From the IMG/VR virus record IMGVR_UViG_3300043419_000898, positions 1 through 64,000 of that record: DNA of 64,000 bases, one strand, 5' to 3'. This document shows, piece after piece, positions 25,273 to 64,000 of this stretch; positions within the stretch are counted from its first letter, which is position 1; the number at the start of each line of letters is the position of its first letter. Origin of the DNA: a virus. The notes below the pieces were generated by a model. The model searched no databases. It was not told the DNA's origin and saw only the letters and a list, made by a program, of their open reading frames with translations. The translations under genes were made by a program, and so were the position numbers.

Positions 25273-25273
25273 A

Positions 25274-29183: not shown

Positions 29184-31012
29184 TAGTTAGCCCTCACTAT
29201 CATCTTCATAGGTCCAAACACCACTATGTTGCCACCTATCGTCCTAGTCAACGTCACGTTATACACACCAGCCGTATTCGTTACACTAGTCGTCAACTGG
29301 AACGTACATCTACCATCAGCGGCGTATACAGGCACACAACTATACGTAGCAATCAACGAGCCTATAGCGTTGTACACCTTAGCCTCTACAGTCGCTCCTG
29401 AGATATCTACACCGTTTTCGTTAGCATCTACCAACTGAACAGATACAGGTGCTTGTACGCCTTGCACGATGTCTAATGGCTGGTCAGAACCTAGTCCATC
29501 AGCGATGACTTTGAAAGGTCCAATATGCACGATGTTTCCTGCTATGCCTTGCATATTACAAGTAACAACTGCACCGTTCGTCGTGTTAGCACCACCTACA
29601 AAGATGGTCACGTCATCAGCACCAAAGTCGAATGCGGCGTTAGGTACGTCTAGCCTGTATGTGCCACGAGCGTATGGAGCAGATACTTCACAGAAGCCAC
29701 CAGAGACGTAAGAGCCAGTCGGTGTTTGTGCTACTACAGTGATAGGTACTGATGCTTGACCATTGCGTGTGTAGGACGCTGTGAGGTTTGTTGTTGTGTG
29801 TGTAAGACCAGTCGCTCCTAGGTAGAGGTAGAGAGAGCGAGAAGTTTCACCGGGCGCAATTGTGATGGTGCTGGAGTTGCGCTCTGTTGGGACGTAACGA
29901 CCTGTAGATACACTATCGGAATATTCAATCGCACCGATTGTTGGAGTAGATGGAGCAAGCCACGTTACACCATAGATATCAGTGGCAGGTGCGCCTGTTG
30001 ATGTACCAGCGTTCTGCGATGCACTGCTTGAATGGTTAGCCCAGAATGGGAAGTTTCCCCACCCTGTGACCCGGCTTAGGTTGTAGTCAGGAGATATAAA
30101 CGCTCGAGTGGTTGACCCTGTTCCTGTTCCAACATTATTCCTAGGAGTGCCGCAATTAAAAATGTTATACGATTCAACTATTTGACCATTATTTGTATTT
30201 GAAGTAATGCCAGTTGAAGTTTCAAAAATACAATTTCTGATTAATGTTGGATATGTTGTTGTTAGGTTATTGCCCGGATATGGAGCAATTCCAATATATC
30301 CTATAAACCTACAGTTTTGAACTGTAATTCCACCTAAAAACGCACCTCCAGAACTAAAAAACTGAAGACACGTGGATGGCGTATATACAGATGGATTTAT
30401 AAAAACACAATCCTTAAAAGACGACTGTGAATCAAACGCAGATGTTAATTGACTACTACCAAGCGTAACCGGTGCAAGAAATATACACTTAGATACTGTA
30501 AATCCAGCAGTACTTTGTATTGGTGTAAGCCTTACAGCAAATGAAAAATCAACATTATTTGCTGGTGTGTAAAAACCACACGCTGTGACAACATTAGATG
30601 TTCCAACAAACTGAAAGATAGTTCCATAAAGTGGGTCACCTCCAGTTCTGTAACCTGTTATATGTAAATTTTGCAATGTTACATATGATTTATTGATTTC
30701 CAATACCCCAGATGAGTTAGCACTAGTATTTGTTACGTAGTTAGTTAACACTACAGGGCCAGCAGAAACACCGGTAAATTGTGACGCTGTAGGGTCACCA
30801 GATATTGTAATTCGCTGTCCTTCTGATGTTGGGTTTGTAAATGCCGCTGTGACCGACTCACGATAAACACCGGGAGCAATATACAATGTGTCTCCGGGAG
30901 CAATCCCTGTTGCGCCGATGGCTTTTGTTATCGTCTGCCACGCCTGATTAGTAGCAGGACCAGTGCCAGCGTTTATGTCACTGCCATCAGTCCTGACGTA
31001 ATACGTTGCCAT
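29183..31012 (-). CDS. Beta-helix appendage protein, paralog 1
   Basis: MATYYVRTDGSD..IAPGVYRE and GTYRLDVP. Confidence 0.8.
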   Translation of the reverse strand: MATYYVRTDGSDINAGTGPATNQAWQTITKAIGATGIAPGDTLYIAPGVYRESVTAAFTNPTSEGQRITISGDPTASQFTGVSAGPVVLTNYVTNTSANSSGVLEINKSYVTLQNLHITGYRTGGDPLYGTIFQFVGTSNVVTACGFYTPANNVDFSFAVRLTPIQSTAGFTVSKCIFLAPVTLGSSQLTSAFDSQSSFKDCVFINPSVYTPSTCLQFFSSGGAFLGGITVQNCRFIGYIGIAPYPGNNLTTTYPTLIRNCIFETSTGITSNTNNGQIVESYNIFNCGTPRNNVGTGTGSTTRAFISPDYNLSRVTGWGNFPFWANHSSSASQNAGTSTGAPATDIYGVTWLAPSTPTIGAIEYSDSVSTGRYVPTERNSSTITIAPGETSRSLYLYLGATGLTHTTTNLTASYTRNGQASVPITVVAQTPTGSYVSGGFCEVSAPYARGTYRLDVPNAAFDFGADDVTIFVGGANTTNGAVVTCNMQGIAGNIVHIGPFKVIADGLGSDQPLDIVQGVQAPVSVQLVDANENGVDISGATVEAKVYNAIGSLIATYSCVPVYAADGRCTFQLTTSVTNTAGVYNVTLTRTIGGNIVVFGPMKMIVRAN

Positions 31013-51263: not shown

Positions 51264-51670
51264 ACGCCTACTGCTTCCCTTAATTTTGCCATCACTGACG
51301 TGTTTTCCTGAGGTAGAACCTTGTTCAGTGTGACTATAAGGTCAACAATGTCACCTACTGTCTGGAAAAGACGGTCGTCTATGGAGTCCATATGAACGAT
51401 GCCGTCACGGACGTTTCTTGTTTCATCGTACTGTGCTAGTTCAATGAAACGTGCTCTTTGAGCATTTACGCTGAATCTGATGTTATTTAGGTCTTCTACG
51501 TAACCACGTAGCATCTGTACATCAGCCGCTGATAGGCTTGTCCGATTCTTGTTTGACTTCTTCAACTTCTTCCCCTTTGAACGTGTGTTTGACGCCAGCC
51601 TTCCACTGCTTGTCAATGCCAGCAACGGCGTCACTGAAGTCCTTCCACGAGTCAAACTTAGCGTCAACAA
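51260..51670 (-). CDS. Hypothetical protein (true start probably downstream)
   Basis: ORF coupled to the exonuclease start. Confidence 0.5.
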   Translation of the reverse strand: MLTLSLTRGRTSVTPLLALTSSGRLASNTRSKGKKLKKSNKNRTSLSAADVQMLRGYVEDLNNIRFSVNAQRARFIELAQYDETRNVRDGIVHMDSIDDRLFQTVGDIVDLIVTLNKVLPQENTSVMAKLREAVGV

Positions 51671-51839
51671 TGAACGTCACGACACGTGTGTCTTCACCGT
51701 CAATACCGACGCAGTCTACATAGAAGATGACCGACTTTTCCTTGCTGGCTTTTATTCCAGTCAAAGCAAACCAGCCTTCAGTTAAACCCTGCTGCACAGC
51801 CGCAGTCACGACTTGCTCATGTAATTGCTTGTATGTCAT
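51522..51839 (-). CDS. Hypothetical protein, leaderless
   Basis: TTGCTC-17-TAGAAT then 6 nt to ATG. Confidence 0.65.
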   Translation of the reverse strand: MTYKQLHEQVVTAAVQQGLTEGWFALTGIKASKEKSVIFYVDCVGIDGEDTRVVTFIVDAKFDSWKDFSDAVAGIDKQWKAGVKHTFKGEEVEEVKQESDKPISG

Positions 51840-52019
51840 GCATTCATTCTAGAACGCTTCATAACACCGAGCAATGAACACTTTATATTAGATAGTCTTC
51901 AGTTTGTCAATAGTAAAAAACACAAATAAAATAAATAAAAAACAACTTGTACGTTTTGATTTACCGTGGTTATAATGTAACCGACGGAAGTCAAACACTA
52001 AAAGGAAGGGTAAAAAACA

Positions 52020-52205
52020 TTGGCTAAAGTAAAAACAGCAACAACAGAGACGCTTTCTATCGTCTTGTCTGGTGATGCAGTCGAAGAAGCAGTAGCAGCC
52101 CGTGATACATTGACCAAGAAGCTCGGATTTGTTCCGACTTGGCGTCAGGTTGTTTCACTGACTCTCAATCAGTTCAACAAGATTCAGCGCACAGAATCTG
52201 AATAA
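52020..52205 (+). CDS. Small hypothetical protein
   Basis: Upstream TATAAT promoter and AAGGAAGG RBS. Confidence 0.6.
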   Translation: MAKVKTATTETLSIVLSGDAVEEAVAARDTLTKKLGFVPTWRQVVSLTLNQFNKIQRTESE

Positions 52206-52218
52206 AGGTAGGCTACTG

Positions 52219-52491
52219 GTGCAAGAACAACCTCAGTTCAGCATATGGCGTGTCATAACAAGGGCATTTGTAGTGGTTATAGGCTTAGTGATGTTGCCTG
52301 TAATCTTAGTGCTCGCATTGATATCAATAACAATGTCTATCTTTGGAGTGGTACTCGCCGAACTAGGTAAGTTGTTATTGGTGCCAACGAACGACATGGT
52401 GTGTGCCATCTTTGCACCTCATCAAAGTCAGTTGTTCCGTGTGTCTGGTCAAACAGAAATCACAGAACGTACAGACGAAGACCAAGAGTAG
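52219..52491 (+). CDS. Small membrane protein
   Basis: Long hydrophobic stretch. Confidence 0.6.
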   Translation: MQEQPQFSIWRVITRAFVVVIGLVMLPVILVLALISITMSIFGVVLAELGKLLLVPTNDMVCAIFAPHQSQLFRVSGQTEITERTDEDQE

Positions 52492-52586
52492 TCAACACTA
52501 AAGTCGCCCCATACTGCGTGGTTATCGCTACGCTGTGTGGGGCATAGTTGTCTCTAGTGGTCATACAATAATGATGGAGAGCAAGC

Positions 52587-52889
52587 ATGACATTCACTGA
52601 GATTTCCGATTTTGTCGCCAACGGACGAACTGTATACAGAACGTCTGAGCCTGAGCAGATGTACTTCATCTTTTCTGGTCGTATTGCAAACGTCGTTATC
52701 TTTACTGCTGATACTGAGTATCTTCCTGAGCCGGGTAACGGATACTGCGTGTATACGCACGATGTAGAAGGAGTTGAGTACAAGATTATTGACGACTGGG
52801 TAATCTCAACTGACATGCTTGGTGCTGATGACTGGGAAGTTGTGCCAGATATGTCCATTGAATGGGGAGATAGAAATTCTGAGCGATGA
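52587..52889 (+). CDS. DUF2829/Tad2-like paralog
   Basis: MTFTEI..NGRTVYR...DMLGADDWEVV. Confidence 0.6.
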   Translation: MTFTEISDFVANGRTVYRTSEPEQMYFIFSGRIANVVIFTADTEYLPEPGNGYCVYTHDVEGVEYKIIDDWVISTDMLGADDWEVVPDMSIEWGDRNSER

Positions 52890-53518
52890 CATTCAAAGAC
52901 ATATTGCCACACCTTGAGTTAGGCTTATTCTGTCGTCGTAGGTCAGACTTGAATTACTACTACTTTATCTACGACGGAAAGAACTACAACTATCAAGTGG
53001 GGCTTGAGCCTGAAAATGGAAAGCCAGCACTTGGAAACGGATATAGAATTTCATCTAAGCCGGTAGTTGTCAACGGCTATTGTGGGTACACCTTAGATGA
53101 CTGGGAGCCTAACGAGCTCGACATGAGTGTGTCTGACTGGGAGGTTCCAGCGGTTGACCTTTTGCTACCTGAAGTAGTAATGGAGAAACAAGAAGTGGCA
53201 CCAGTGGAAATCAAGAGGCTTGACACAAGCAAGCCGATATCAAAGCGACCACCACGGCAAAGAGAGCCAAAGAGCAACATAGACTTTGATGTAGCACTTC
53301 TTCACCTAAAGAAGGGTGGCATCACTGAAGTGCCAACATACGAGCAAGGCGACATACTCGCTGTTCAGTACCAACTATTCAACAACATTACACTGATGAC
53401 TCGCAAGCGGTTATACGACAAAGTCTATGACGCATGGGTGCCATATCAGTGGCAAGCAAAAGACTTTGCCTGTATTGATTACAGGCTACTGAAAGCAAAG
53501 GATAAGAATGACTCCTAG
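52886..53518 (+). CDS. DUF2829/Tad2-like protein with two tandem domains
   Basis: MTFKDILPHLELG..CRR...DMSVSDWEV, then IDFDVALLHLKKGG...KDFACIDYRLL. Confidence 0.6.
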   Translation: MTFKDILPHLELGLFCRRRSDLNYYYFIYDGKNYNYQVGLEPENGKPALGNGYRISSKPVVVNGYCGYTLDDWEPNELDMSVSDWEVPAVDLLLPEVVMEKQEVAPVEIKRLDTSKPISKRPPRQREPKSNIDFDVALLHLKKGGITEVPTYEQGDILAVQYQLFNNITLMTRKRLYDKVYDAWVPYQWQAKDFACIDYRLLKAKDKNDS

Positions 53519-53756
53519 AAAACGATACATCTACATGCTGAAGGCTGATGGTCAAAACGACAATCGTGTCTTTTACATCACAACAAAAGCAAAGTATGTT
53601 ATCTGTGAGATGCTAAAGAAGGGTGCTACTGAAGTCACCGTACTGCGAGCAGAACACGATGAGTTTAAGGCAAATCCTAACTGCGAAATGGAAGTAGTCA
53701 CTGTGTGCGACAAGGTTTGGTGGAACGACTACTTGCAAGGAAAACGTGGATGGTAA
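53508..53756 (+). CDS. Hypothetical protein
   Basis: 82-aa ORF in the operon. Confidence 0.6.
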   Translation: MTPRKRYIYMLKADGQNDNRVFYITTKAKYVICEMLKKGATEVTVLRAEHDEFKANPNCEMEVVTVCDKVWWNDYLQGKRGW

Positions 53757-54142
53757 TCAACCTTTTGCCGACTGGTCACAAAGAGCAGTTCAGAGAGTCT
53801 TTTGTTTCTGAGGTAATCAGTGCCCTAAGAGAGCCTAATGAGACAACACATGAAGTCTATCTAGGTGACTACTACCTAAAAGTAGATAAGAAGTTCATCA
53901 CTGACATCGACTCAACAGATAAGAACTGGGAGCACGGTGTAATCAACTACGAGTTTGGATACACAGACAACAGCATTGAAGTGAATCCTATCAAGGGGCG
54001 TTTTGTTGGCGTAACTTTAATCTTTGCTGCACATCCGGAAATCATGATTGCTGATAGGTTTGACTACATCTACACACGATTAATCAACAACGTGTTGACA
54101 CAGGCAGAAGCAAAAGAATATTACGACGAACTTGACTACTAG
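53705..54142 (+). CDS. Hypothetical protein
   Basis: Acidic ORF; true start probably near 53750. Confidence 0.6.
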   Translation: MRQGLVERLLARKTWMVINLLPTGHKEQFRESFVSEVISALREPNETTHEVYLGDYYLKVDKKFITDIDSTDKNWEHGVINYEFGYTDNSIEVNPIKGRFVGVTLIFAAHPEIMIADRFDYIYTRLINNVLTQAEAKEYYDELDY

Positions 54143-54180
54143 TAGTTGACAAAGTACATGATAAGTGGTAAAACACTTAC

Positions 54181-54450
54181 ATGGAAAACAATAAGAATAA
54201 TGCACCACTTTGGTTTATCGGTGGGCTACTTTTAGGCGGTACTCCGATATTCCCATTTGCGTTCGGTTGCCTTGGATTGGTTTCAGTAATAGTCGTATTT
54301 TCTATTGGTTCTGTTCTAAGTGCTCTGACTTATGCAGTAGTGCTGCACTGGAAGACGCTTTTGTTGTTTGTGATATTTGGCTCAGTATTCGCACTTCTCG
54401 GATACATGTACATGCTAGAGGAGAAGAAGAAGCGTGAAAATAAGGGCTAA
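54181..54450 (+). CDS. Membrane protein
   Basis: 2-3 TM segments; TTGACA box upstream. Confidence 0.65.
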   Translation: MENNKNNAPLWFIGGLLLGGTPIFPFAFGCLGLVSVIVVFSIGSVLSALTYAVVLHWKTLLLFVIFGSVFALLGYMYMLEEKKKRENKG

Positions 54451-54769
54451 CTATATTGACGTCACATGTGACCAGTATGTTGCTTGCCACATGTTGGTCA
54501 TGTTCTACGAAACAAACGTCGTATCAGACTTCATCAAAATCACCGTATCTGACGTGCTTTCAAACGATGTGGGCATGGAACCGTTGGTTATGTATCCATC
54601 TATTGACGATGAGGCTTGTACGTACAAAGTACGGATGATTCTTCGTGGCGTTGAAGAAATCAAAGTTTATCCATACGACATGCTTCATAAGATGTTGAAT
54701 AATCGTCTAATACCTTTTTGGATGACCGAGATTGACAAGTGTGTAGCGTCCATGAAGGGGCTAAACTGA
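54434..54769 (+). CDS. Hypothetical protein
   Basis: 111-aa ORF coupled to the next gene. Confidence 0.6.
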   Translation: MKIRANYIDVTCDQYVACHMLVMFYETNVVSDFIKITVSDVLSNDVGMEPLVMYPSIDDEACTYKVRMILRGVEEIKVYPYDMLHKMLNNRLIPFWMTEIDKCVASMKGLN

Positions 54770-55011
54770 TGACGCTTGAAGAAGCACTCTTCTGGATGCG
54801 TGATGGTAAAGCCGTTGTTTCCAAGAAGATGATGATGAAGTTCAAAATGGAGAGACGTCCAGTCAACCTAGGAGGCTCTACAAAGACATACTGGTTCATA
54901 GAGTTTCAGCACATGAATACTAAGTTTCCAGAAGAATGGATACGGTGGCATAGTGCAAATGATGACTTCTTCGACTTGATAAACGACGATACGTGGGAGT
55001 TAGTACCATGA
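54769..55011 (+). CDS. DUF2829/Tad2-like paralog
   Basis: MTLEEALFWMRDGKAV...DLINDDTWELV. Confidence 0.6.
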   Translation: MTLEEALFWMRDGKAVVSKKMMMKFKMERRPVNLGGSTKTYWFIEFQHMNTKFPEEWIRWHSANDDFFDLINDDTWELVP

Positions 55012-55199
55012 CAATCAATGATGCACTGCCGTTGCTTGATGAGAGAAAAATCATCTGTACGGCTTCACATCGTTTCAGGAAGAGCCGAATTGGCTACGAG
55101 TGGACGAACGTAGGTGAGCCAGATATCTGGTGGCCAGTACAAGCAAAACTTGAGTTCATAGACATAACCGATGATTGGGTTTTAGAGGTAACAGAATGA
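55008..55199 (+). CDS. DUF2829/Tad2-like paralog (short)
   Basis: MTINDALPLLDERKII...IDITDDWVL. Confidence 0.5.
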   Translation: MTINDALPLLDERKIICTASHRFRKSRIGYEWTNVGEPDIWWPVQAKLEFIDITDDWVLEVTE

Positions 55200-55471
55200 C
55201 ATTTCCAGAAGCACTAGCACACTTACTTGACTACAGAGTAATGCAACGAGTTGATGATGGCCAGACATTCAACTTCTGGTTCAACAAAGATACCGGAAGC
55301 GGCATGTACGAAGAAGATGAGTTTATGTTTGCAAGCATGTGGTTTGTTTCTATTGACGACTTTACTGACGAAAACTGGGAGTTTACAGATAAAGCAACAG
55401 AAGCACGTATCAAAGAGAAGTATAGTGCGAATCACAAGTATGTAAAAGGCATTGGCTTAGCACGTAAGTAA
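55196..55471 (+). CDS. DUF2829/Tad2-like paralog
   Basis: MTFPEALAHLLDYRVMQR...SIDDFTDENWEF. Confidence 0.6.
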   Translation: MTFPEALAHLLDYRVMQRVDDGQTFNFWFNKDTGSGMYEEDEFMFASMWFVSIDDFTDENWEFTDKATEARIKEKYSANHKYVKGIGLARK

Positions 55472-55561
55472 GCCAATTAACGAAATGTAGGCACCATGAA
55501 AATGGTGTCTTTTTTTATTTGTACTATTTACAATCTGACAACAAGGATGTATAGTGACTAC

Positions 55562-55753
55562 ATGAGATTTGCTGAAGTTATAGATGCTTTGATAAATGGG
55601 AAGAAGGTTAGACGGGCTTCTTGGCAGCAAGTAGGCGGATGTGTCACGTGTGACTTTACACAGATGACCATCTCCATTGGCGGTGTTGACAGTCCATTCA
55701 GCCTAAACACAATTTCTTTACTTGCTGATGACTGGGAGGTGCTTGATGACTAG
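55562..55753 (+). CDS. DUF2829/Tad2-like paralog
   Basis: MRFAEVIDALINGKKVRRASW...SLLADDWEVL, near-canonical; TTTACA-17-TATAGT then 6 nt to ATG. Confidence 0.8.
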   Translation: MRFAEVIDALINGKKVRRASWQQVGGCVTCDFTQMTISIGGVDSPFSLNTISLLADDWEVLDD

Positions 55754-56090
55754 TCAAGAGTTAGTGGATTGTTTGCTTGATGGCAAAACGTTGACTCATT
55801 CTTTCTTTGGAAGGAACGGTCGTGTTCACATATTGAACGTAGCAGAAGAGCACGATGCTTACCAACGTCTTGTTGTTGTTTATAGGGATGGAGAGATTGG
55901 CTGGAATCGACAGACTTATAAAGAGACGCTTGAACGCTCAAAGTTAGAGAACTTCTTAAAGCACATCTACATAGACACACTGAACATATACCGTGATAAC
56001 ACGCTTATGATGCCAGAGCAGTATCAACTATTCAAGAAAGCATATAACGAGTCAGATTGGTCAATCTGGGAGCCTACAGATGAAGTTTAG
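55746..56090 (+). CDS. DUF2829/Tad2-like paralog (divergent)
   Basis: MTSQELVDCLLDGKTL...ESDWSIW. Confidence 0.5.
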   Translation: MTSQELVDCLLDGKTLTHSFFGRNGRVHILNVAEEHDAYQRLVVVYRDGEIGWNRQTYKETLERSKLENFLKHIYIDTLNIYRDNTLMMPEQYQLFKKAYNESDWSIWEPTDEV

Positions 56091-56346
56091 AGCAAAGCCT
56101 TCTGGCTGCAAGTACTTGTCAAAAAGAGACCAAGAAGCAATACGGTTCTGCATGAACTACTTCAGGGAGAATCCAACAGAACTTTCATGCACGTTGTACG
56201 AAGTGCTTGAAGATGGTACTGAGCAGATAGTCGGAAATATCGCAAACCCTGAGTTTGAAAAACTGGAAGAAGACGTCGTAAGACTCATGTCTATCTATAC
56301 GCACTTCAAGAAAAAGGGTGAGCCTACACCAGAGATGTGGCAATAA
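56080..56346 (+). CDS. Hypothetical protein
   Basis: 88-aa ORF. Confidence 0.6.
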   Translation: MKFRAKPSGCKYLSKRDQEAIRFCMNYFRENPTELSCTLYEVLEDGTEQIVGNIANPEFEKLEEDVVRLMSIYTHFKKKGEPTPEMWQ

Positions 56347-56539
56347 GATGCTTTTCAGCACATTAACAGACTTGCAGAACGTAGTGTTAGGACTACCTCA
56401 GTATGCAACTGAGCCTCCTAAATGGTTTATACATAGGGAGCATTACGCCTTGATTATAAAGTCACAGTACAAGTATGCAAAGGCTATTCGCAAAGCCAAG
56501 GCACGTAAAAAGCGTATCAATTCGAAGTGTGGAAGGTAA
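56318..56539 (+). CDS. Small basic hypothetical protein
   Basis: K/R-rich C-terminus; true start probably 56348. Confidence 0.5.
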   Translation: MSLHQRCGNKMLFSTLTDLQNVVLGLPQYATEPPKWFIHREHYALIIKSQYKYAKAIRKAKARKKRINSKCGR

Positions 56540-56542
56540 TCA

Positions 56543-56776
56543 ATGACTGGACTTGAAGCACTTGAATTATTGCGGAATAGCGACACTAAAGTCAAACGTG
56601 CCGAATGGAGAAGTGATGAATACCTAAGAGCATATGGCAACGGTCAGGGTATATGTCCATCATTAGGCTACCACCGTAAACGGGGAGAGGACTGTTACTA
56701 TCCAGAGGATGCTGTTACTTTAACCGATGACATTTTAAACGACTTTACAGCAGACGATTGGGAGGCAGTGGAATGA
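56543..56776 (+). CDS. DUF2829/Tad2-like paralog
   Basis: MTGLEALELLRNSDTKVKRAEW...DFTADDWEAVE. Confidence 0.75.
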   Translation: MTGLEALELLRNSDTKVKRAEWRSDEYLRAYGNGQGICPSLGYHRKRGEDCYYPEDAVTLTDDILNDFTADDWEAVE

Positions 56777-56994
56777 CAATACACGAAATAAGCCCATCTG
56801 TTTCCAAAGGCTTTCCATTTAAACGTGATGTCTGGCCACAAAAGCTTTACTACTACTACGACAGAGATGACCAGTGGTTTATCCAAGTTAACTCAGAGAC
56901 TGGATGCGAAATCATCATGTACACACTTGACCTAAATCTTGAAGACTTGATGGCTACTGACTGGAGTGTTGACGAGTGGGAGGTAGAAGAATGA
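56773..56994 (+). CDS. DUF2829/Tad2-like paralog
   Basis: MTIHEI..KGFPFKRDVW...EDLMATDWSV. Confidence 0.7.
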   Translation: MTIHEISPSVSKGFPFKRDVWPQKLYYYYDRDDQWFIQVNSETGCEIIMYTLDLNLEDLMATDWSVDEWEVEE

Positions 56995-57200
56995 GTGGAG
57001 TGGAGGCACTAGCCTTAGCCAAGCACGGCATGAAGGTAACTTGTCACAACTGGTACGACAAAGATAATCCTTGGGACTACTCCGCATGGATTGAAGAAGG
57101 ATGTATAGTGAATAGCCCGTACGAAGGTATGAGTGCATACGACGCCACAAACGCCTTTCTGGCAGACCTACTACATCAAGAATGGGAAGTACTTGAGTAA
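56991..57200 (+). CDS. DUF2829/Tad2-like paralog
   Basis: MSGVEALALAKHGMKVTCHNW...DLLHQEWEVLE. Confidence 0.65.
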   Translation: MSGVEALALAKHGMKVTCHNWYDKDNPWDYSAWIEEGCIVNSPYEGMSAYDATNAFLADLLHQEWEVLE

Positions 57201-57529
57201 TGGAGCACGACTCATACAAGTGGATTATGGAGCAGTATCCAAAGACATCTGAAACGCTGGTCTTTGAGAGAGTCTGTGATGCACTACATGCACGTAAGTC
57301 ATATGACAGAACGCTAGACACAGACGAAGACATCGTCAAGGTTGCAATCAAAGTCAGCCCTATTTCAAAGCAAGTGCGGGTAGGCATTAAGTTCAAAAAC
57401 CCAGATGTCTGGATAAGTGACGCTGCCCCTACGGAGCCGTATAAGTATTCATACATGTATATGGGACTTCTGGAGAGCATTATTTGCTCTTATCAATTGT
57501 GCAAGAAGTTTGACGCTGAACAACTATGA
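57200..57529 (+). CDS. Hypothetical protein
   Basis: 109-aa coupled ORF. Confidence 0.6.
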   Translation: MEHDSYKWIMEQYPKTSETLVFERVCDALHARKSYDRTLDTDEDIVKVAIKVSPISKQVRVGIKFKNPDVWISDAAPTEPYKYSYMYMGLLESIICSYQLCKKFDAEQL

Positions 57530-57828
57530 AGATAACACTCAAACACCGTGTGTACACGCACGACGACGGCACTAAAACAGACGTCTATGACCCAGAGGTT
57601 GAGGGCAAAGATGTAGGAATGCTCGTCCATGGGTTTAAGTTGGACTATGAAGTCTGGCGTCCACTAGGCTCTGAACTGGAATTCGTCATAAGGAAACTAG
57701 TACGTGACGAAGAGAACCCACGACAGTATTTGACAGACGAAAATCTCAAGCCACTCAACGTTGATGTGCATATGCATGTCAAGTCAGTGACCATAGAGTT
57801 TGAAGAAATTTATCCACCAACTGGATAG
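57526..57828 (+). CDS. Hypothetical protein
   Basis: 100-aa coupled ORF. Confidence 0.6.
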   Translation: MKITLKHRVYTHDDGTKTDVYDPEVEGKDVGMLVHGFKLDYEVWRPLGSELEFVIRKLVRDEENPRQYLTDENLKPLNVDVHMHVKSVTIEFEEIYPPTG

Positions 57829-57931
57829 ATATTATCCACCAGTTTCCTGACTGACCGTTTGAAAATTAACTTGTACTAGATATCCTTTGGACATCTTTAG
57901 GGGGTATGAGTAATGTCGGTTAGGATTTTTT

Positions 57932-58003
57932 GGGCAGTTAGCTCAACGGTTGAGCAGCAAACTCATAATTTGTTGGTTAGGGGTTCGAATCCCTTACTGC
58001 CCA
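57932..58003 (+). tRNA. tRNA with CAT anticodon (Ile2 or elongator Met), CCA not encoded
   Basis: Acceptor GGGCAGT/ACTGCCC plus A73, D arm GCTC/GAGC, anticodon arm GCAAA-CTCATAA-TTTGT, T arm AGGGG-TTCGAAT-CCCTT. Confidence 0.92.
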
Positions 58004-58043
58004 TAGATGTTTGAAAGACATCTTCCATACGATACAATAGGAC

Positions 58044-58107
58044 TTCCATTACAAAACTCCTTACTCTAAACCCAGATGCATCTCCCGCATCTGGGTTCTT
58101 TTTTTTT
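58044..58107 (+). ncRNA. Candidate anti-RBS small RNA
   Basis: TTGAAA-16-TACAAT promoter, then CCATTACAAAACTCCTT, then terminator AACCCAGATGC/GCATCTGGGTT with a T-run. Confidence 0.45.
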
Positions 58108-58123
58108 GTGGTAGGATGAAATT

Positions 58124-58232
58124 GCCACCGAAAGGTGAGCATTTGAACGAAAGACCAGAGAAATCTGGGCTACGTCCGACAAACACATACTCTGCAAACA
58201 GAAAGACCAGTTCTCCAGACTGGTCTTTTTTG
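58124..58232 (+). ncRNA. Candidate structured small RNA with GAAA tetraloops
   Basis: Extended -10 TGgTAGGAT; hairpins CACC-GAAA-GGTG and CCAGA-GAAA-TCTGG; terminator AAAGACCAGT/ACTGGTCTTT with a T-run. Confidence 0.5.
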
Positions 58233-58243
58233 TTAGGTGACCT

Positions 58244-58480
58244 ATGACCGGTGAAGAAGTACTACCACTCTTACGTAAAGGCAAACTGATGAGGCGAAAA
58301 GCATGGAGTCCAAAGCTGCATGTCTTCATGAGGCAGATGGGTGATACCTACTACCTATTCGCTCAAGGGGCTGATGTCTTTGACCTTATGGACGACAAAA
58401 TCAAACTGTCCGACTTCTTCTATGACGACTGGGAAATATATGTTGATATAGTTGACAACAGTAAGCCATCAGATGTATAA
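58244..58480 (+). CDS. DUF2829/Tad2-like paralog
   Basis: MTGEEVLPLLRKGKLMRRKAW...SDFFYDDWEIY. Confidence 0.75.
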   Translation: MTGEEVLPLLRKGKLMRRKAWSPKLHVFMRQMGDTYYLFAQGADVFDLMDDKIKLSDFFYDDWEIYVDIVDNSKPSDV

Positions 58481-58488
58481 TTTACTCA

Positions 58489-58743
58489 ATGGGTAGATAC
58501 TCAAGAGTATCTTTAGGAGTAAGTATGCTGGATATGTCGTTTGACCCTATATGGGCATTGAAGCAAGGGTATACAGTTGTTACTGAGTATCCAAACAACA
58601 CGTCATTTCACTACAAAATCATCGACGGGAAGTTAAAGTCGAAATGCACTTTCTATGTAGATGACTTCTGGAAAGATGCTGGTTATTTCGTACTTGGTGT
58701 AGACGTTAAGTGCTCACTTATCCCACCGGAGCCACCAATTTGA
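58489..58743 (+). CDS. Hypothetical protein with weak DUF2829-like N-terminus
   Basis: TTGACA-18-TATAAT then 7 nt to ATG; IWALKQGYTVV, but no terminal DW. Confidence 0.55.
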   Translation: MGRYSRVSLGVSMLDMSFDPIWALKQGYTVVTEYPNNTSFHYKIIDGKLKSKCTFYVDDFWKDAGYFVLGVDVKCSLIPPEPPI

Positions 58744-58961
58744 CAGTAGATACAGCAATCAAAAGTATCCTTGAGGGACATCGAGTAATCAACGACTCAA
58801 GCATGAGTTTTACTGAGATTCACTACGACAAAGAGTCTAAGTACTTCATATACTCCATCCAAGGGGTTGAGTCCATGAGGGATAGGAAGTTAATGCTGGC
58901 GTTATCTGATTTAAAAAGTAAGGACTGGAAGATAGTTGACATTCGGACAAGCACTACATAG
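58740..58961 (+). CDS. DUF2829/Tad2-like paralog
   Basis: TTG start; TVDTAIKSILEGHRV...SDLKSKDWKIV. Confidence 0.65.
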   Translation: MTVDTAIKSILEGHRVINDSSMSFTEIHYDKESKYFIYSIQGVESMRDRKLMLALSDLKSKDWKIVDIRTSTT

Positions 58962-59151
58962 TTTGAAAAAAGGTTTCACTGTGACTCGTACATACGTTGA
59001 GTCCGACGCTGTTGTTGTTGTGTTTTGTAAATTCACAAACAACCAAAGACTGGTTAGAAAGAAAGTCACAAGTAGACATCAGTCCGACTGGAGGCTTTCT
59101 GGTTGGTCACTCAAGGATATGTCCGCAACTGACTGGATAGTCGCTGGATGA
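58936..59151 (+). CDS. DUF2829/Tad2-like paralog
   Basis: MTFGQALHSLKKGFTVTR...KDMSATDWIVA. Confidence 0.75.
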   Translation: MTFGQALHSLKKGFTVTRTYVESDAVVVVFCKFTNNQRLVRKKVTSRHQSDWRLSGWSLKDMSATDWIVAG

Positions 59152-59330
59152 CAGCCACAGAGGCTTATGACTGGGTTATATCTGGCGGCAAAGTTAGACA
59201 TGCTACTTGGTCTATGGACACATACGCTTTCCTACATCATGGAGTAGTCAGTTATACGGATGGAACGTATCTGACAACTTGTCCGCCGTTTGAATTCTTT
59301 TCAAATAACTGGCAGATATATACAAAGTAG
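59148..59330 (+). CDS. DUF2829/Tad2-like paralog
   Basis: MTATEAYDWVISGGKVRHATW...FFSNNWQIY. Confidence 0.65.
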   Translation: MTATEAYDWVISGGKVRHATWSMDTYAFLHHGVVSYTDGTYLTTCPPFEFFSNNWQIYTK

Positions 59331-59422
59331 GATACACTTATCATGAACGTAGATGCCTTATAGCATCTTTAGGAAAGTAAGGGAAGATAGATATCCAAGG
59401 ATATCTTTGAAGGGAAAACAAC

Positions 59423-59800
59423 ATGGACTTTGTAACGATTATCGGTTTGACGTTTGGGCATTGGTTTGCTGACTTTGTGTTGCAGACACGTAAGATTGCA
59501 GAAACCAAGTCAAAGAGTTTTCGGTCGCTGTTTACTCACGTAGCCTTGTATACAGCCGCACTTGCTTGTGTGATGGTGCCTATCCTTATCCGACAGTATG
59601 ACTGGAGGTTGATTGTGTCTTTCATCCTTCTCAATGGTTTCTGCCATCTGGTCACTGACTTTGGAACATCTAAGATGTCAGCCGCCGCATACAAGGACGA
59701 AGACAAGAGCCAGTTCTGGCAAATCATCGGCTTTGACCAGTCTATCCACTGGAGTCACTTACTGATTACTTACTTTGGCTTCTTCGTATGGGGTAACTAG
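59423..59800 (+). CDS. DUF3307-like membrane protein
   Basis: GHWFADFVLQ, LFTHVALY, HLVTD and GFDQSIH. Confidence 0.85.
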   Translation: MDFVTIIGLTFGHWFADFVLQTRKIAETKSKSFRSLFTHVALYTAALACVMVPILIRQYDWRLIVSFILLNGFCHLVTDFGTSKMSAAAYKDEDKSQFWQIIGFDQSIHWSHLLITYFGFFVWGN

Positions 59801-59801
59801 T

Positions 59802-60263
59802 ATGTGGGATAACAGTAAGCGAGTGAAACCATCCTATGAAGAGATATACCAACGAACAACAAAAGACGTTCTTGACTTAGTAGTCTCTCTTAGAGAGAAG
59901 CGTTACTCGTTTGACCGGATAGCCGGATACCTACATGAGAATGGTTATCAATCACCTCATGCTAAGTGGAATCCACATACGCTTAGTCGGCTGATGAAGA
60001 TTCACGGGTTAGAGGAAAAGCAACTTTACAAGGTGCCAGACTACCGGCATATCAATGAGATACTTGAACTAAAAGAGTCGGGTATGTCTTTTAGGGATAT
60101 TGTTTCCCATCTAAACAATACCGGCAAGCGTAGACCGAGTGGTTTACCGTTTTGTGTCCATAGGCTTAGGGTTTACATACGGCAGTATCACATACTGAAA
60201 GAAAGGTATGGGGCTGAGATGGACAAGTACACCGTAGCGAGAGAGGAAGAAGATGACATTTGA
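59802..60263 (+). CDS. DNA-binding protein with two recombinase-type HTH repeats, no catalytic domain
   Basis: LREKRYSFDRIAGYLHENGY..W and LKESGMSFRDIVSHLNNTG..RPSG. Confidence 0.65.
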   Translation: MWDNSKRVKPSYEEIYQRTTKDVLDLVVSLREKRYSFDRIAGYLHENGYQSPHAKWNPHTLSRLMKIHGLEEKQLYKVPDYRHINEILELKESGMSFRDIVSHLNNTGKRRPSGLPFCVHRLRVYIRQYHILKERYGAEMDKYTVAREEEDDI

Positions 60264-60504
60264 AGAAGCAGTCAAAGCCATGGATAACGGGGCTTTTGTT
60301 CGAAGGGCTGGTTGGTCTAAGAACATCAAGTTGTATGCCGCGTATCCAGCAGAAGAAGATGCTGAGCCGATAAACAATAAGCGGCATATCTTTGCACAGA
60401 TTGACTCATACGAGCCAGAGTATGCCATATTTCGGTTATCCGATATCTATGGCGATGACTGGTACGTAGTAAACGACGACAACACTACAGACGACGAGTT
60501 ATAG
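60253..60504 (+). CDS. DUF2829/Tad2-like paralog
   Basis: MTFEEAVKAMDNGAFVRRAGW...SDIYGDDWYVV, near-canonical. Confidence 0.8.
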   Translation: MTFEEAVKAMDNGAFVRRAGWSKNIKLYAAYPAEEDAEPINNKRHIFAQIDSYEPEYAIFRLSDIYGDDWYVVNDDNTTDDEL

Positions 60505-60512
60505 GAGACAAC

Positions 60513-60803
60513 ATGAAAAAGACGTGGGAAGAGAAGTTCGATGCGGCTTGTCAGTATAGTTACAATGACTTAATCATTGATGGTCAATGTACATATCCAG
60601 AGGCACTTATCAACGGATATAGAGCCATCATTGAAATGGTCACGACTGAGAAAGCTTGCAGTTTCTCGTACAACTGTGGCGGTTGGCATATCTTCTACAC
60701 AAGGAAAAAGAAGAAGTTTTCTCCTAAGGAAGAGTTCTTGCTGGAAGTTATCAAGAGTGCCAAACATGGTTACTCTAGTTACGACACGGAGGATTATAGA
60801 TGA
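60513..60803 (+). CDS. Hypothetical protein
   Basis: AGGAG RBS, 96 aa. Confidence 0.65.
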   Translation: MKKTWEEKFDAACQYSYNDLIIDGQCTYPEALINGYRAIIEMVTTEKACSFSYNCGGWHIFYTRKKKKFSPKEEFLLEVIKSAKHGYSSYDTEDYR

Positions 60804-61000
60804 CGTTTGGTCAGATTTACGGGTTAGTCAAAAAGGGACGCTGGTTTGGTCGTAGTAGCCAACCAAAGAGTCGGACATGCATGGTAGCGGATACATTCCT
60901 TATCCACGACTTGTCGGAAGATGGAAGCATCATCAAGTGGAATGTTCTTTCACTAACAACAGAAGACATGATGGCTGATGACTGGGAAGTCTACAGTTAA
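60800..61000 (+). CDS. DUF2829/Tad2-like paralog
   Basis: MTFGQIYGLVKKGRWFGR...EDMMADDWEVY. Confidence 0.75.
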   Translation: MTFGQIYGLVKKGRWFGRSSQPKSRTCMVADTFLIHDLSEDGSIIKWNVLSLTTEDMMADDWEVYS

Positions 61001-61241
61001 CGATAATCAGTTCAAGAGACACATAACGCTTCTCTGTAAACGGCTTGATAAGGGCTACACCATAGAGTGTGCTTACGTGAAGTCACGTACAGCCAACATG
61101 GCTGCTAACGGTCGTAACAGAGAGGCGTTACGCTTGCATATCAAGTACTGCGAGAAGCGTGGTCTTGACTGGGAGAAGTACTGGAAAGGTGACCCGTACT
61201 TTACCAAGAGCATTAGTATCCGTGACTATGGTAGTTTGTAA
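60978..61241 (+). CDS. Hypothetical protein
   Basis: 87-aa ORF. Confidence 0.55.
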   Translation: MTGKSTVNDNQFKRHITLLCKRLDKGYTIECAYVKSRTANMAANGRNREALRLHIKYCEKRGLDWEKYWKGDPYFTKSISIRDYGSL

Positions 61242-61320
61242 TGTTTACATTGTAATGAGTGTAGTCACCAGAACAGATGCTTGTCGCATCTTTGGGATTT
61301 ATGATAATGGGAGTTAGTGA

Positions 61321-61713
61321 ATGTTTGAAAGCGTGAGTGAACATCCGTCTAATTGGCAAGCAGTTGGGTCATACGAAGAAGTGGTAGCGGGTATCAAGAA
61401 TGTAGTCGGCGATGTGGAGAACATTGGCGTATTCGCTGAGATATATCCATGCATCTTTGAGATGGCTGATAAAGATGTCGTAGATGGCTGGTGTTCCATT
61501 GATAAGGTGGCGTTTGCCGCCGCTATAGGCTTCTATACGGCTACTGCTGTTCAGTCGCTATACAAGACGGTATCGCATCGGATGATATCGGCGATAACGG
61601 TAGCACCGGTCATCGACTTGATGCAAGCCGGACTATTACGAGTAGAGGCTGATGCCGTTTACCTACGGCATGTAGATGGCATTGAGTTGATACCGGAATC
61701 TCCTTATGAATGA
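61321..61713 (+). CDS. Hypothetical protein
   Basis: GGAG RBS, 130 aa. Confidence 0.6.
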   Translation: MFESVSEHPSNWQAVGSYEEVVAGIKNVVGDVENIGVFAEIYPCIFEMADKDVVDGWCSIDKVAFAAAIGFYTATAVQSLYKTVSHRMISAITVAPVIDLMQAGLLRVEADAVYLRHVDGIELIPESPYE

Positions 61714-62140
61714 TAGGGAAGATTATTCACAGTACACAAAAGGTCTGAAGTCTTACAAGACTCACGGACGGATACAGTTACCACCACACGATGACTCGTT
61801 ACTGCGTGACTACTGTGCGAAGAAGAGGCTTCTAAACGGCTGGACATACGCTTACGTCGGTAGGCAAGTATTGCAACGTAACGGTAAGCCATACTCACGG
61901 ATGAACATCTATAACTGGGTCACTGGTCGGATTAAGTTTGGACCAACGTACTCCTACAAGATGGCAGAAGCATTTCGTGTGCATCCTATATACGCCGCGT
62001 TTCTCATGAAGCGGTTTCCAGACTACGAGTTAATCGATGAGTATCCGGAAGAGGCGGAAGTAGTTCACTTCATGCTAGATGCTATGAGACGGTTTGGTTT
62101 CAAGGTAGATAAAGGGGATAAGAAGTATGAGATTATCTGA
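61706..62140 (+). CDS. HTH-like regulator
   Basis: KRLLNGWTYAYVG..YSRMNIYNWVTGR pattern. Confidence 0.5.
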   Translation: MNDREDYSQYTKGLKSYKTHGRIQLPPHDDSLLRDYCAKKRLLNGWTYAYVGRQVLQRNGKPYSRMNIYNWVTGRIKFGPTYSYKMAEAFRVHPIYAAFLMKRFPDYELIDEYPEEAEVVHFMLDAMRRFGFKVDKGDKKYEII

Positions 62141-62420
62141 TTTCATAAGGCGGCGACGCAAAGAACTAAACATGACGCAGAAGCAACTAGCCAAGGAAGT
62201 AGGACAGAATCCCGGCTGGATATGCATGTTAGAGTCTGGTCTAAGGATGCCGGGAGCAGTCACTATGCCCATACTTTCCGCTGCCTTAGAGGTGCCAGAG
62301 GCTATGCTATCGATTATGTCTGGTCATTCACCGGTTACCGACTTCAAGGACGACCTAACCATCGAGCAGCTTGAGGCAGCAGTGAAAGAGTTTGTTGCTA
62401 AAGTGGGTGCTGATATTTAG
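62127..62420 (+). CDS. XRE-family HTH transcriptional regulator
   Basis: IRRRRKELNMTQKQLAKEVG..ICMLESG.R.P. Confidence 0.9.
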   Translation: MRLSDFIRRRRKELNMTQKQLAKEVGQNPGWICMLESGLRMPGAVTMPILSAALEVPEAMLSIMSGHSPVTDFKDDLTIEQLEAAVKEFVAKVGADI

Positions 62421-62524
62421 CAGGACTGGACTGCCATCGTCATGTCGTTTGCTGGTAAAGCCACGACTCATCAGTCCTGTGGTGGTTCTGGTTGTTTGAT
62501 TAATCAACAAAGTATAGGCAAAAG

Positions 62525-62573: not shown

Positions 62574-62906
62574 CTAGTCAGCGTATATACGCTGACCTTT
62601 TAGCGTATACAAAACGCTATTTCCTAGCGTGATGTAGGCATTGAATTCATAGCACATATTAGAGCCTTGCACGTGCACAGAGTCGATGCCATGCATCAAG
62701 GCTTCGGATGCAAGAGCGAAACCGAATTCGGTTTCAGTTTGAAACCACTTGATTTCGTTACCGTCACGGCTTCCACCAAAGTACTTGATGGTATTGGCTT
62801 CGTTTACGATGGAAGTAGGATTATCTTTGTAATCCATTGTTTCAGCACGTACGATGCCATCGGCATATCCGGCTTTTGCGATAAGTGTAAGAAGAAGTGA
62901 TTTCAT
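62574..62906 (-). CDS. Hypothetical cargo protein of cassette A
   Basis: GAGGGA RBS, 110 aa. Confidence 0.65.
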   Translation of the reverse strand: MKSLLLTLIAKAGYADGIVRAETMDYKDNPTSIVNEANTIKYFGGSRDGNEIKWFQTETEFGFALASEALMHGIDSVHVQGSNMCYEFNAYITLGNSVLYTLKGQRIYAD

Positions 62907-62928
62907 TTTGGTAGGTTCCCTCTTGTGA

Positions 62929-63048
62929 TTACTTGACTAGATTGCCAAGTGTAACGATAACAGCGACGATGATAGAGAAGGACAAAAGTCCACCGATGAT
63001 AAGAGCAAGGTTGATTGCTTCGGCTTTTGTTGTTTGTGGAAGTTCCAT
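62929..63048 (-). CDS. 39-aa single-TM peptide of cassette A, not in the ORF track
   Basis: MELPQTTKAEAINLALIIGGLLSFSIIVAVIVTLGNLVK; TTGCAT-17-TAGTAT then 6 nt to ATG. Confidence 0.75.
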   Translation of the reverse strand: MELPQTTKAEAINLALIIGGLLSFSIIVAVIVTLGNLVK

Positions 63049-63452
63049 GCCTCAATACTACAGCAGATTGTATACGTATGCAAGACATTTTCCAGATATA
63101 TTTTCCTATCCTAAATGCCTTATTTGCATCAGTTTGCCTACCATGCATAGCATTTATGAAATGCCTCTGTAGGCTCAAATTTGGCGATTCTACGGACTTT
63201 GTATACGTTATGGCATAACTTATCGATTTGACGTCAAAACGGCTCTATTTAGGCAAATCTAAGAGTCCGCCCAATGCAGGCTTTGAAGTAGCGTTACTGA
63301 CAGTCACCATTCATGGTGACGTATAGTCACATCGGACTTTACAGGAGTTAGTTGCGTAGTCAACAATTGATAAATCAACTACTTGTGGCAACTACTCAAA
63401 TAACCTGCCGTAGCTGCTAGGTGTGACTATTAGTCACATGCCAGTGATAAAC

Positions 63453-63480
63453 AAAAGCCGGATGATTTCTCATCCGGCTT
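63453..63480 (-). terminator. Terminator of cassette B
   Basis: AAGCCGGATGA-gaaa-TCATCCGGCTTTT on the minus strand. Confidence 0.75.
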
Positions 63481-63498
63481 GATGCAACCGTGGTAGGT

Positions 63499-63738
63499 TT
63501 ACTCGGTTATGTAATCCGAGTAATTCCAAACCTTGACTTTGTAGGTTTGACCCTTGAAGTTTGTCAATTGCCAAACCTCATTGAGTCCCCAAACCTTGAT
63601 AAGTTTCGCACTTATCAATTCTGGATGCATGATATCCAAGCCGAATTCACGGCTGTAGAAAATCTCGATACGAGCCTTATTAAGGCTTGCCTCACGGGTG
63701 AGGCTTTCAGCGAGTGCGATTTCTTGTGTCTTAGTCAT
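63499..63738 (-). CDS. Hypothetical cargo protein of cassette B
   Basis: 79 aa; the same AGGGAACC..AAAATG leader as cassette A. Confidence 0.65.
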   Translation of the reverse strand: MTKTQEIALAESLTREASLNKARIEIFYSREFGLDIMHPELISAKLIKVWGLNEVWQLTNFKGQTYKVKVWNYSDYITE

Positions 63739-63761
63739 TTTTGGTTCCCTATACTTTCCGA

Positions 63762-63878
63762 TTACTTTACGAGATTTCCAAGCGTTATCAGAACGCCTAC
63801 GATGATTGCAAAGGATGTAAATCCGCCGACGATGAGTGCAAGGTTGATTACTTCAGCCTTAGTGGTTTGAGGTTGCAT
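63762..63878 (-). CDS. 38-aa single-TM peptide of cassette B, paralog of 62929-63048
   Basis: MQPQTTKAEVINLALIVGGFTSFAIIVGVLITLGNLVK; TTGACA-18-TAGTAT then 6 nt to ATG. Confidence 0.75.
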   Translation of the reverse strand: MQPQTTKAEVINLALIVGGFTSFAIIVGVLITLGNLVK

Positions 63879-64000
63879 GTAAAGATACTACAGCCAAGCG
63901 TTAGAGAATGTCAATAGGGTATTTGCATATTCAACAAAAATAGTTTTGCATATCCTAAAAATAGTTTGAAGGTATACAAATGCCATCATTTCCGCCTATA

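Follow-up and report, generated by a model that had tools for sequence, protein, structure and literature searches.

The window analysed here is the first 64,000 nucleotides of the 82,497-bp IMG/VR virus record IMGVR_UViG_3300043419_000898, rated complete by CheckV, which is the 82.5-kb genome of an uncultured freshwater tailed phage. Between 52.6 and 61.0 kb it contains an array of small genes whose products belong to the PF11195 (DUF2829) family of Tad2; few phage sponges of this kind, which capture bacterial immune signals, are known. About 16–17 such genes had been proposed in an original prediction made from the DNA alone. Fifteen genes with 16 domains are supported as Tad2-like, a further open reading frame (ORF), 55746, is a weak candidate, and another, 58489, is without sequence support (genes are named by the position of their first letter). 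The array may be a counter-defence gene set with a Tad2-type sponge mechanism, a reading to which we assign roughly even chances.

Family membership and predicted fold

All 17 predicted ORFs are present at the proposed starts on the + strand, 15 of them with an ATG start and two (58740 and 58936) with TTG. Their shared frame is indeed the PF11195/DUF2829 signature, with conserved columns G17, R22, W25, D79, D84, and W85 (numbering of SPO1 Tad2). When each protein is scanned alone, nine of the 17 match PF11195 at E ≤ 0.002, and no other family convincingly; eight are without a match. The curated Pfam cut-off of 25 bits is reached by five (55562, 58244, 58936, 60253, and 60800), 52587 scores 24.8, and the remaining three lie at 19.4–20.2 bits. 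A six-frame PF11195 scan of the whole record gives eight places, all inside 52.5–61 kb.

Profiles extend this set. When the nine Pfam-positive copies are made into a profile and the genome's 915 stop-to-stop ORFs (minimum length 40 residues) are searched with it, only 58740 and 59148 are recruited (both at about 1e-3), and further iterations recruit no additional ORF. With 11 window copies in the profile, a search of 1.84 billion representative proteins yields 1605 at E ≤ 1e-3; from the 150 best of these unrelated metagenome representatives, 216 domains were cut to make a wider family profile. Against the 915 ORFs the family profile matches 13 of the 17 genes at E < 1e-3, including 56991 and 55196 (Table I), with E-values reaching 1e-16. 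It has no match outside 52.5–61 kb and none for 58489.

Two genes, 54769 (0.011) and 55008 (0.017), score better with the family profile than the best unrelated ORF (0.1). Their orthologues in the relatives G001 and G002 match the family profile at 4e-3 to 2e-5, and the two are counted as supported for this reason. Their hhalign probabilities are 79% and 85%, compared with at most 10.6% in eight control ORFs from the same region. The family-profile E-value of 55746 (0.29) is above that of the best unrelated ORF; hhalign aligns its N terminus only, at 19.5–47%, and it has no Pfam or PHROG match. It is evidently a real gene, with four homologues, none of which carries a Pfam domain, and a ratio of nonsynonymous to synonymous differences (pN/pS) of 0.29. 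ORF 58489 had already been flagged as weak, and no sequence test upholds its membership: it lacks a Pfam, PHROG, or family-profile match, its hhalign probability is 1–2%, and its two homologues are without a Pfam domain. Its sole lead is an ESM Atlas structure match, at template modelling (TM) scores of 0.58 and 0.62, with a cluster in which 78% of members have PF11195. ESM Atlas matches of 55746 and 58489 (scores below 0.9, TM 0.47–0.62) are taken as leads only. Six of eight doubtful ORFs have no PHROG family, and 59148 shares phrog_6670 with 60253.

The two-domain organization proposed for 52886 is borne out. Residues 132–199 align with residues 1–67 of the 71-residue 58936, its closest paralogue (31% identity, BLASTP E 2e-8), which covers the whole length of the latter, and the C-terminal domain is conserved in six homologues. 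The family profile is blind to this domain and hhalign gives it 0.6–23%, so that direct BLASTP to 58936 is what supports it. Between the domains runs a linker of about 40 residues (90–131), rich in Pro, Lys, and Glu and of a length conserved in six homologues; the linker of most two-domain relatives is about 6 residues.

Searches of the PDB with the profile of 11 window copies match seven distinct sequences at 8e-8 to 1e-4, all Tad2/AcrIIA7 proteins (HgmTad2/AcrIIA7, ModTad2, SptTad2, and SPO1 Tad2); every solved Tad2 is found, and nothing else. The profile is needed for this, as phmmer of 60253 alone against the PDB sequences finds no Tad2 match. An AlphaFold2 model of 60253, the only copy tested for fold, was obtained from 37 sequences with a predicted local distance difference test score (pLDDT) of 84.7. 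It comprises a helix (residues 3–11), strands 16–18, 25–30, and 45–50, strand-state residues 56–57, a short helix (62–65), and a last strand (70–72), and agrees with the Tad2 fold, in which an N-terminal helix is combined with an antiparallel sheet of five strands and a short helix precedes the last of these. Among the rows listed by Foldseek, every one down to rank 24 is a Tad2 entry (TM 0.67–0.75), the first 19 having E ≤ 0.001; the E-value at rank 25 is 0.17. The Z scores and root-mean-square deviations (RMSD) of VIA-align with Tad2 structures are 9.9–11.5 and 1.9–2.9 Å over 70–73 residues; the next Z is 4.9. Both aligners find Tad2 only, and 60253 is predicted to have the Tad2 fold. The model of 52886 (7 sequences, pLDDT 47) is too poor to use, and a Foldseek search with it returns noise (best E 0.34) that says nothing about fold.

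Age, selection, and relatives

Between paralogues the middles are unrelated, as had been noted, with identities of 13–36%, and DNA self-similarity is absent from the region; the expansion is therefore old. The same two observations rule out recent tandem duplication. A syntenic block with 65–81% DNA identity to the array is present in G001 (83,860 bp), whose TerL protein is 97% identical and whose genome is about 75–80% identical in DNA. Mosaic import of the region is ruled out by the similar identities of the whole genome and the array. Orthologues in G001 are found for 24 genes of the block, at 32–90% protein identity, and pN is below pS in all 24 pairs (pN/pS 0.09–0.61; synonymous sites are near saturation). 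The copies thus appear to be individually under purifying selection, with their order kept in a genus-level relative.

Multiple copies are also found in related phages. With the family profile 13 of 952 G001 ORFs match at E < 0.01, in the syntenic block, and the window lacks a counterpart of one of them; 56543, 56991, and 58244 are without an orthologue in G001. Both differences point to slow turnover. Three to four tandem copies stand at the contig end of G003, a 15-kb fragment with a 51% identical TerL. When 60253 is used as query, an IMG/VR locus search finds only G001. A single 37-kb contig from another freshwater study spans 51500–62500 with 279 differing letters and 64 gap letters, and the array is intact there at about 97.5% identity.

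The original description of the middles as hypervariable is misleading. Between orthologues (11 pairs) they are 65% identical, about as conserved as the N- and C-terminal motifs (70% each), which rules out ongoing diversification; the middles are, by this comparison, old paralogue-specific segments.

That phages usually carry one or a few such genes is weakly tested. A near-consensus relative used in tblastn, which is too insensitive for the family, finds 14 cultured-phage records, 13 with one place and one with two. A two-domain relative used as query retrieved 48 IMG/VR loci (±10 kb), most of them from one sample and one phage group; 42 contain two domains, five contain one, and one contains five. 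This last locus (L029, 9998–13598) lies on an unrelated IMG/VR contig and alone among the 48 exceeds two domains. Four of its domains belong to a pair of neighbouring two-domain Tad2-like genes; the fifth is encoded on the opposite strand at a distance of 2.5 kb. SPO1 presumably carries one Tad2 gene, compared with 15 in the window.

Pocket residues and proposed function

The background given for Tad2 in the original prediction, namely a homotetramer that sequesters glycocyclic ADP-ribose (gcADPR) and has homologues binding cyclic dinucleotides, stands in the literature. In SPO1 Tad2 (gp34.65; PDB entries 8SME, 8SMF, 8SMG, and 8WJE), the founding Thoeris anti-defence 2 sponge, two gcADPR pockets are described between the protomers of the homotetramer, with contacts from W25, N26, W73, and D79, plus I63, T65, D67, H71, S76, and T78. 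Aligning gp34.65 with 16 window copies on the family profile shows W25 in nine. Seven of these are firm (55562, 56543, 56773, 56991, 58244, 59148, and 60253), and in 55196 and 55746 the residue is aligned only after long insertions. Position 73 is Trp in six of the 16 and Tyr or Phe in six, and D79 is kept in ten. Six copies have both W25 and D79 (55196, 56543, 56773, 56991, 58244, and 60253), four of them with an aromatic residue at 73 as well (55196, 56773, 56991, and 60253). The W25 and D79 equivalents fall in elements kept by the 60253 model (loop 19–24 and helix 62–65). In the wider family, Trp occupies the W25 column in 91% of the 216 external domains and Asp the D79 column in 67%; 66% have an aromatic residue at column 73. 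These domains were selected by score against a profile that has such residues already. The model and alignment indicate that the fold and part of a gcADPR-type pocket are shared with Tad2, and that the defining contact set is not.

As a counter-defence set, these genes would be expressed from host-type promoters, and the small proteins would assemble into oligomers through helix α1 and the β-sheet. Nucleotide-derived immune signals would then be sequestered in pockets between protomers that the β1–β2 loop, carrying the Trp, forms with the short C-terminal helix, carrying the Asp. The six copies with both pocket residues are the best sponge candidates, while copies in which the Trp is replaced would be expected to bind other ligands or to act as partner subunits. 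A Tad2-type function is favoured a priori, because 65 of 84 tested Acb2, Tad1, and Tad2 homologues were active against one or more of seven signalling defence systems in the preprint of Hadary et al., which calls the Tad2 family remarkably diverse in function. The sponge repertoire envisaged in the original prediction thus draws support from family, fold, age, selection, and partial pocket conservation; it is the full set of ligand contacts that is missing.

Several observations weigh against a sponge function. None of the 16 aligned copies has the SPO1 set W25, N26, W73, and D79 complete. W25 is lost in seven (52587, the N domain of 52886, 54769, 55008, 58740, 58936, and 60800), N26 is absent except in the doubtful alignment of 55746, and no alignment is possible for the segments holding the mid-protein contacts I63, T65, D67, and H71. 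The share of Trp in the external domains (91%) is biased upward by scoring the 150 best against a profile already containing Trp. The copies are 60–100 residues long, compared with 89–104 for solved Tad2. In HgmTad2 the cyclic-dinucleotide pocket is reported to derive from an insert between β2 and β5 made up of two helices and two strands, and this insert is absent here, the 60253 model having a low-confidence loop (31–44) and no helix between its second and third strands. Promoter-like sites in the region are not above shuffles (31 vs. 26.7), for which reason early expression is something we infer. Six contigs of 150–260 nucleotides from one RNA-library run (X20) lie on the stretch but are no evidence of transcription, as DNA can occur in RNA libraries. 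Finally, no known counter-defence gene was found beside the array among ten interleaved ORFs scanned.

Comparison with the solved proteins shows the same mixture of likeness and divergence. SPO1 Tad2 belongs to the same family and has the same N-terminal helix motif and C-terminal D-x-x-A-x-D-W motif, and for 60253 the same fold (Z 10.6–11.5, RMSD 1.9–2.7 Å, model residues 1–74 on chain residues 5–89). However, identity is only 22–28% in the structural alignments, W73 is replaced by Tyr or Phe in most window copies that keep W25, N26 is not kept, and many window copies have 60–75 residues compared with 89. HgmTad2/AcrIIA7 (PDB entries 8KBI–8KBM and 9KZR) and SptTad2 (8WJD) share the core fold (Z 9.9–10.3) and include the best PDB sequence match of the window profile (7.9e-8), but are described as 101–158 residues long, with the insert that the window copies lack. 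With AcrIIA7, the anti-CRISPR annotation of DUF2829, the window shares Pfam family and fold only. ModTad2/MoTad2 (9EIB and 8V3E), a sponge for histidine-ADP-ribose (His-ADPR) and cyclic UMP (cUMP), is of the same family and fold (1.2e-5, Z 10.3–10.4). According to Hadary et al., MoTad2 binds its two ligands at two different interfaces, so that one Tad2 scaffold holds different ligands; in its case a single gene yields a homotetramer with two pockets, in contrast to the many window genes with differing middles.

The losses at the pocket also suit protein-binding inhibitors built on a Tad2 scaffold, each conserved middle blocking a different host protein, whether a defence or a takeover target. 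We consider this possible though unlikely. Small protein inhibitors abound in phage early regions, and the seven copies without the pocket Trp have middles that are still conserved between orthologues. Moreover, a DUF2829 protein entered the literature as the anti-CRISPR AcrIIA7, recovered in a functional screen, and PDB entries 8kbi and 9kzr are titled accordingly. However, the authors of the Tad2 paper note that Cas9 binding was not shown for the DUF2829 anti-CRISPR, and propose that the family is anti-Thoeris rather than anti-CRISPR; AcrIIA7/HgmTad2 was later described as binding gcADPR and cyclic dinucleotides. The family-wide conservation of W25 and D79 likewise points to a shared small-ligand site.

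Copies without Trp could instead be partner subunits in hetero-oligomeric sponges, each coupled group of genes forming a mixed Tad2-like oligomer with asymmetric pockets. We regard this as improbable. Evidence that bears on it comes from the nearest relatives by sequence, small tandem-domain PF11195 proteins from uncultured phages (P0001–P0150) with the same domain of about 60–70 residues and the same conserved G17, R22, W25, D84, and W85. Of these 150 best-scoring among the 1605 relatives, 108 have two profile-matching domains, five have three, and one has four, although ranking by whole-protein score favours multi-domain proteins and inflates the share of fusions. Even so, such fusions are common, and the prevalence of two- to five-domain tandem proteins among the 150 is new here. 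In 64 cleanly split two-domain proteins the linker has a median of 6 residues, a Rosetta-stone type hint of domain pairing. The fusions, the two-domain gene 52886, and coupled groups of two to four copies with order and overlaps kept in G001 lead us to infer tentatively that the domains work as pairs or mixed oligomers, and Tad2 pockets are described as built from two protomers. On the other hand, 56 of the 64 fusions keep Trp in both domains, unlike the mixed groups of the window, where most domains are encoded by genes of their own, coupled to one another, and almost half lack the Trp; the solved Tad2 proteins are also all described as homotetramers. We know of no member of P0001–P0150 with a tested function. 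Among them, P0001 (296 residues) and P0004 (711 residues) are metagenome proteins that string together four or five small Tad2-like domains, P0004 having up to five domain stretches listed between long unrelated N- and C-terminal parts.

It is tempting to speculate further, doubtful as the idea is, that the array is a kit of subunits in which coupled groups of three to four domains would give mixed tetramers with asymmetric pockets. Such tetramers might cover a wide set of signals, including undiscovered ones, and avoid decoy nucleotides. The two- to five-domain fusions seen elsewhere would then be the fused form of the same assemblies, and W-E-V codons (TGGGAGG) serving as the ribosome-binding site of the next copy would tie the synthesis of four copies together. 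Decoy nucleotides that trap sponges, and by which some defence systems detect them, are raised in the discussion of Hadary et al.; they may be one reason why many narrow sponges could beat one broad sponge.

A non-immune role, as regulators, chaperone-like factors, or nucleotide-pool binders, with the expansion reflecting dosage or host-range adaptation, also appears unlikely. No feature of the window connects the array with a defence system. The neighbours of the array are a tRNA-Met, a helix-turn-helix (HTH)/recombinase-like gene, a DUF3307 membrane protein, and small genes without relation to it, and 19 of the 84 sponge homologues tested by Hadary et al. inhibited none of the seven systems. 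However, every family member of known function is described as an immune-signal sponge, and the long retention of about 15 very different paralogues argues against dosage. Chance motif matches or non-coding ORFs, suggested by the eight proteins without a Pfam match when scanned alone, have negligible probability and are refuted for 15 genes by the profile E-values among 915 ORFs, PDB matches limited to Tad2, pN < pS in every orthologue pair, and orthologues in several metagenomes; only 58489 may be unrelated to the family.

The long retention of about 15 very different versions implies either hosts with a wide range of signalling defences or uses of the fold beyond those known. Each copy is a ready-made bait for unknown ligands from lysates of infected cells, and the single-domain genes here, together with the fused two-domain proteins elsewhere, offer a direct test of whether sponge pockets form from different subunits. 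A full-text literature search found no paper describing arrays of Tad2-like genes; homologue tables, which lie outside that search, may list these proteins. What a 2026 editorial mentions is Tad2 fused to other sponge domains rather than arrays. The set assembled by Hadary et al. comprises 2,783 non-redundant Tad2 homologues, and 84 sponges of three families went into their assays; no mention of multi-copy genomes was found in their text, and their discussion credits single Tad2 proteins with helping to discover new signals such as His-ADPR.

Organization and surroundings of the block

Translational coupling, which had been claimed for most of the genes, is found in 12 of the 17, which overlap the stop of the preceding ORF by 1–26 nucleotides, seven of them as ATGA or TTGA. 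The coupled groups are 52587 and 52886; 54769, 55008, and 55196; 56543, 56773, and 56991; and 58740, 58936, and 59148. In four copies the W-E codons (TGGGAG, mostly TGGGAGG) lie 8–12 nucleotides before the next ATG (55000–55008, 55738–55746, 56765–56773, and 56983–56991), a spacing that suggests the protein motif doubles as the Shine-Dalgarno sequence of the next gene. Terminator-like and promoter-like sites, identified as consensus matches only, split the block into several units within which genes are tightly coupled. Terminator-like sites are more numerous in the region than in shuffles (21 vs. 9.0 expected). A further promoter-like site lies at 51.9 kb.

Table I. Tad2-like genes and other features of the block (residue positions in SPO1 Tad2 numbering, lengths in residues; FP, E-value with the family profile; hh, hhalign probability)
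Feature	Position	Strand	Evidence and remarks
Tad2-like copy, 100	52587–52889	+	PF11195 24.8 bits, 3.3e-5; FP 3.6e-9; E at 25, W at 73; G001 orthologue 65% identical, pN/pS 0.31
Two-domain Tad2-like protein, 210	52886–53518	+	N domain about 1–90 (PF11195 19.4 bits; FP match; hh 95%); degenerate C domain 132–199, W85 replaced by Y
Probable Tad2-like copy, 80	54769–55011	+	Orthologues, FP 4e-3 and 4e-4; no Pfam match; hh match on N-terminal helix; start overlaps preceding stop (TGATG); G001 orthologue 84% identical
Probable Tad2-like copy, 63	55008–55199	+	Orthologues, FP 2.6e-4 and 2.3e-5; no Pfam match; ATGA-coupled
Tad2-like copy, 91	55196–55471	+	FP 5.4e-4; hh 91–94.5%, full length; no Pfam match alone; W25 (after alignment insertion), W73, and D79 equivalents; ATGA-coupled
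Terminator-like hairpin with T run	55489–55510	+	Consensus scan
Promoter-like site	55527–55555	+	Consensus scan; just before 55562, after hairpin 55489–55510
Tad2-like copy, 63	55562–55753	+	PF11195 33.8 bits, 4.9e-8; FP 1.4e-15; W25 equivalent; S at 79
Weak candidate, 114, large insertion	55746–56090	+	N-terminal helix motif; C-terminal SDW; FP 0.29
Tad2-like copy, 77	56543–56776	+	PF11195 20.1 bits; FP 3.8e-10; W25 and D79 equivalents; no BLASTP match in L020
Tad2-like copy, 73	56773–56994	+	PF11195 20.2 bits; FP 6.6e-13; W25, Y73, D79; ATGA-coupled
Tad2-like copy, 69	56991–57200	+	FP 6.6e-7, full length; hh 83%; no Pfam match; W25, Y73, D79; ATGA-coupled
tRNA-Met, anticodon CAT	57931–58004	+	With a group of Tad2-like genes on either side
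Strong terminator-like hairpin, 11 pairs, T9	58069–58097	+	After tRNA-Met; separates two array blocks
Tad2-like copy, 78	58244–58480	+	PF11195 25.2 bits; FP 2.5e-15; W25, D79; 50%-cluster representative P0002 nearly identical by eye
Perfect sigma-70 consensus, TTGACA-18-TATAAT	58452–58481	+	12/12 matches; just before 58489
Small conserved gene, not sequence-supported as Tad2-like	58489–58743	+	Public gene calls give a 72-residue form from Met13
Tad2-like copy, 73	58740–58961	+	In-genome profile 1.2e-3; FP 1.8e-5; no Pfam match; Y at 25, D79; TTG start, TTGA-coupled
Tad2-like copy, 71	58936–59151	+	PF11195 30.0 bits; FP 4e-9; V at 25, W73, D79; TTG start
Tad2-like copy, 60	59148–59330	+	phrog_6670 3.2e-4; FP 7.8e-9; no Pfam match; W25, E at 79; ATGA-coupled
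DUF3307 membrane protein	59423–59800	+	PF11750 3.1e-10; 82% identity to G001 counterpart; embedded in array
162-residue protein	59775–60263	+	Weak recombinase and HTH matches; 44% identity to G001 counterpart; embedded in array
Tad2-like copy, 83, best family match	60253–60504	+	PF11195 37.1 bits; W25, Y73, D79
Tad2-like copy, 66	60800–61000	+	PF11195 25.1 bits; FP 3.5e-11; Q at 25, W73, D79; ATGA-coupled

The Tad2-like genes are interleaved with about a dozen unrelated small genes, of which the ten scanned give only DUF3307 and weak recombinase/HTH matches. Together they form a + strand block of small genes between a minus-strand structural module, ending at about 51.8 kb, and a minus-strand region starting at about 62.4 kb. 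Short contigs from other organisms accumulate at the tRNA-Met in other metagenomes. At 57591–57804, inside or after ORF 57526, 212 nucleotides are replaced by 214 other letters in an aquatic metagenome contig (run X8), which is a small segment swapped between strains.

The genome encodes a major head protein, portal, large terminase, DNA methyltransferase, and ParB-like nuclease. TerL has no close cultured relative (best identity 41.5%), so that no host name can be assigned, and nothing among cultured phages was matched by megablast of 52000–61500 or by tblastn of 60253. The stretch recurs in metagenomes (freshwater, aquatic, and pond) from nine or more further studies (word share at least 0.27). 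Parts lacking cover in runs X7, X8, and X20 and the low-share runs X20 and X21 are excluded from the evidence. In the structural module, seven back-to-back ORFs of 592–674 residues occupy 17322–31012 on the minus strand; the one scanned (17322–19115) has no PHROG match. Short DNA segments at 62900–64000, and on to about 64350 of the genome, match several places of the relative's genome at 70–94% identity, a sign that a repeated element stands where the minus-strand region begins.

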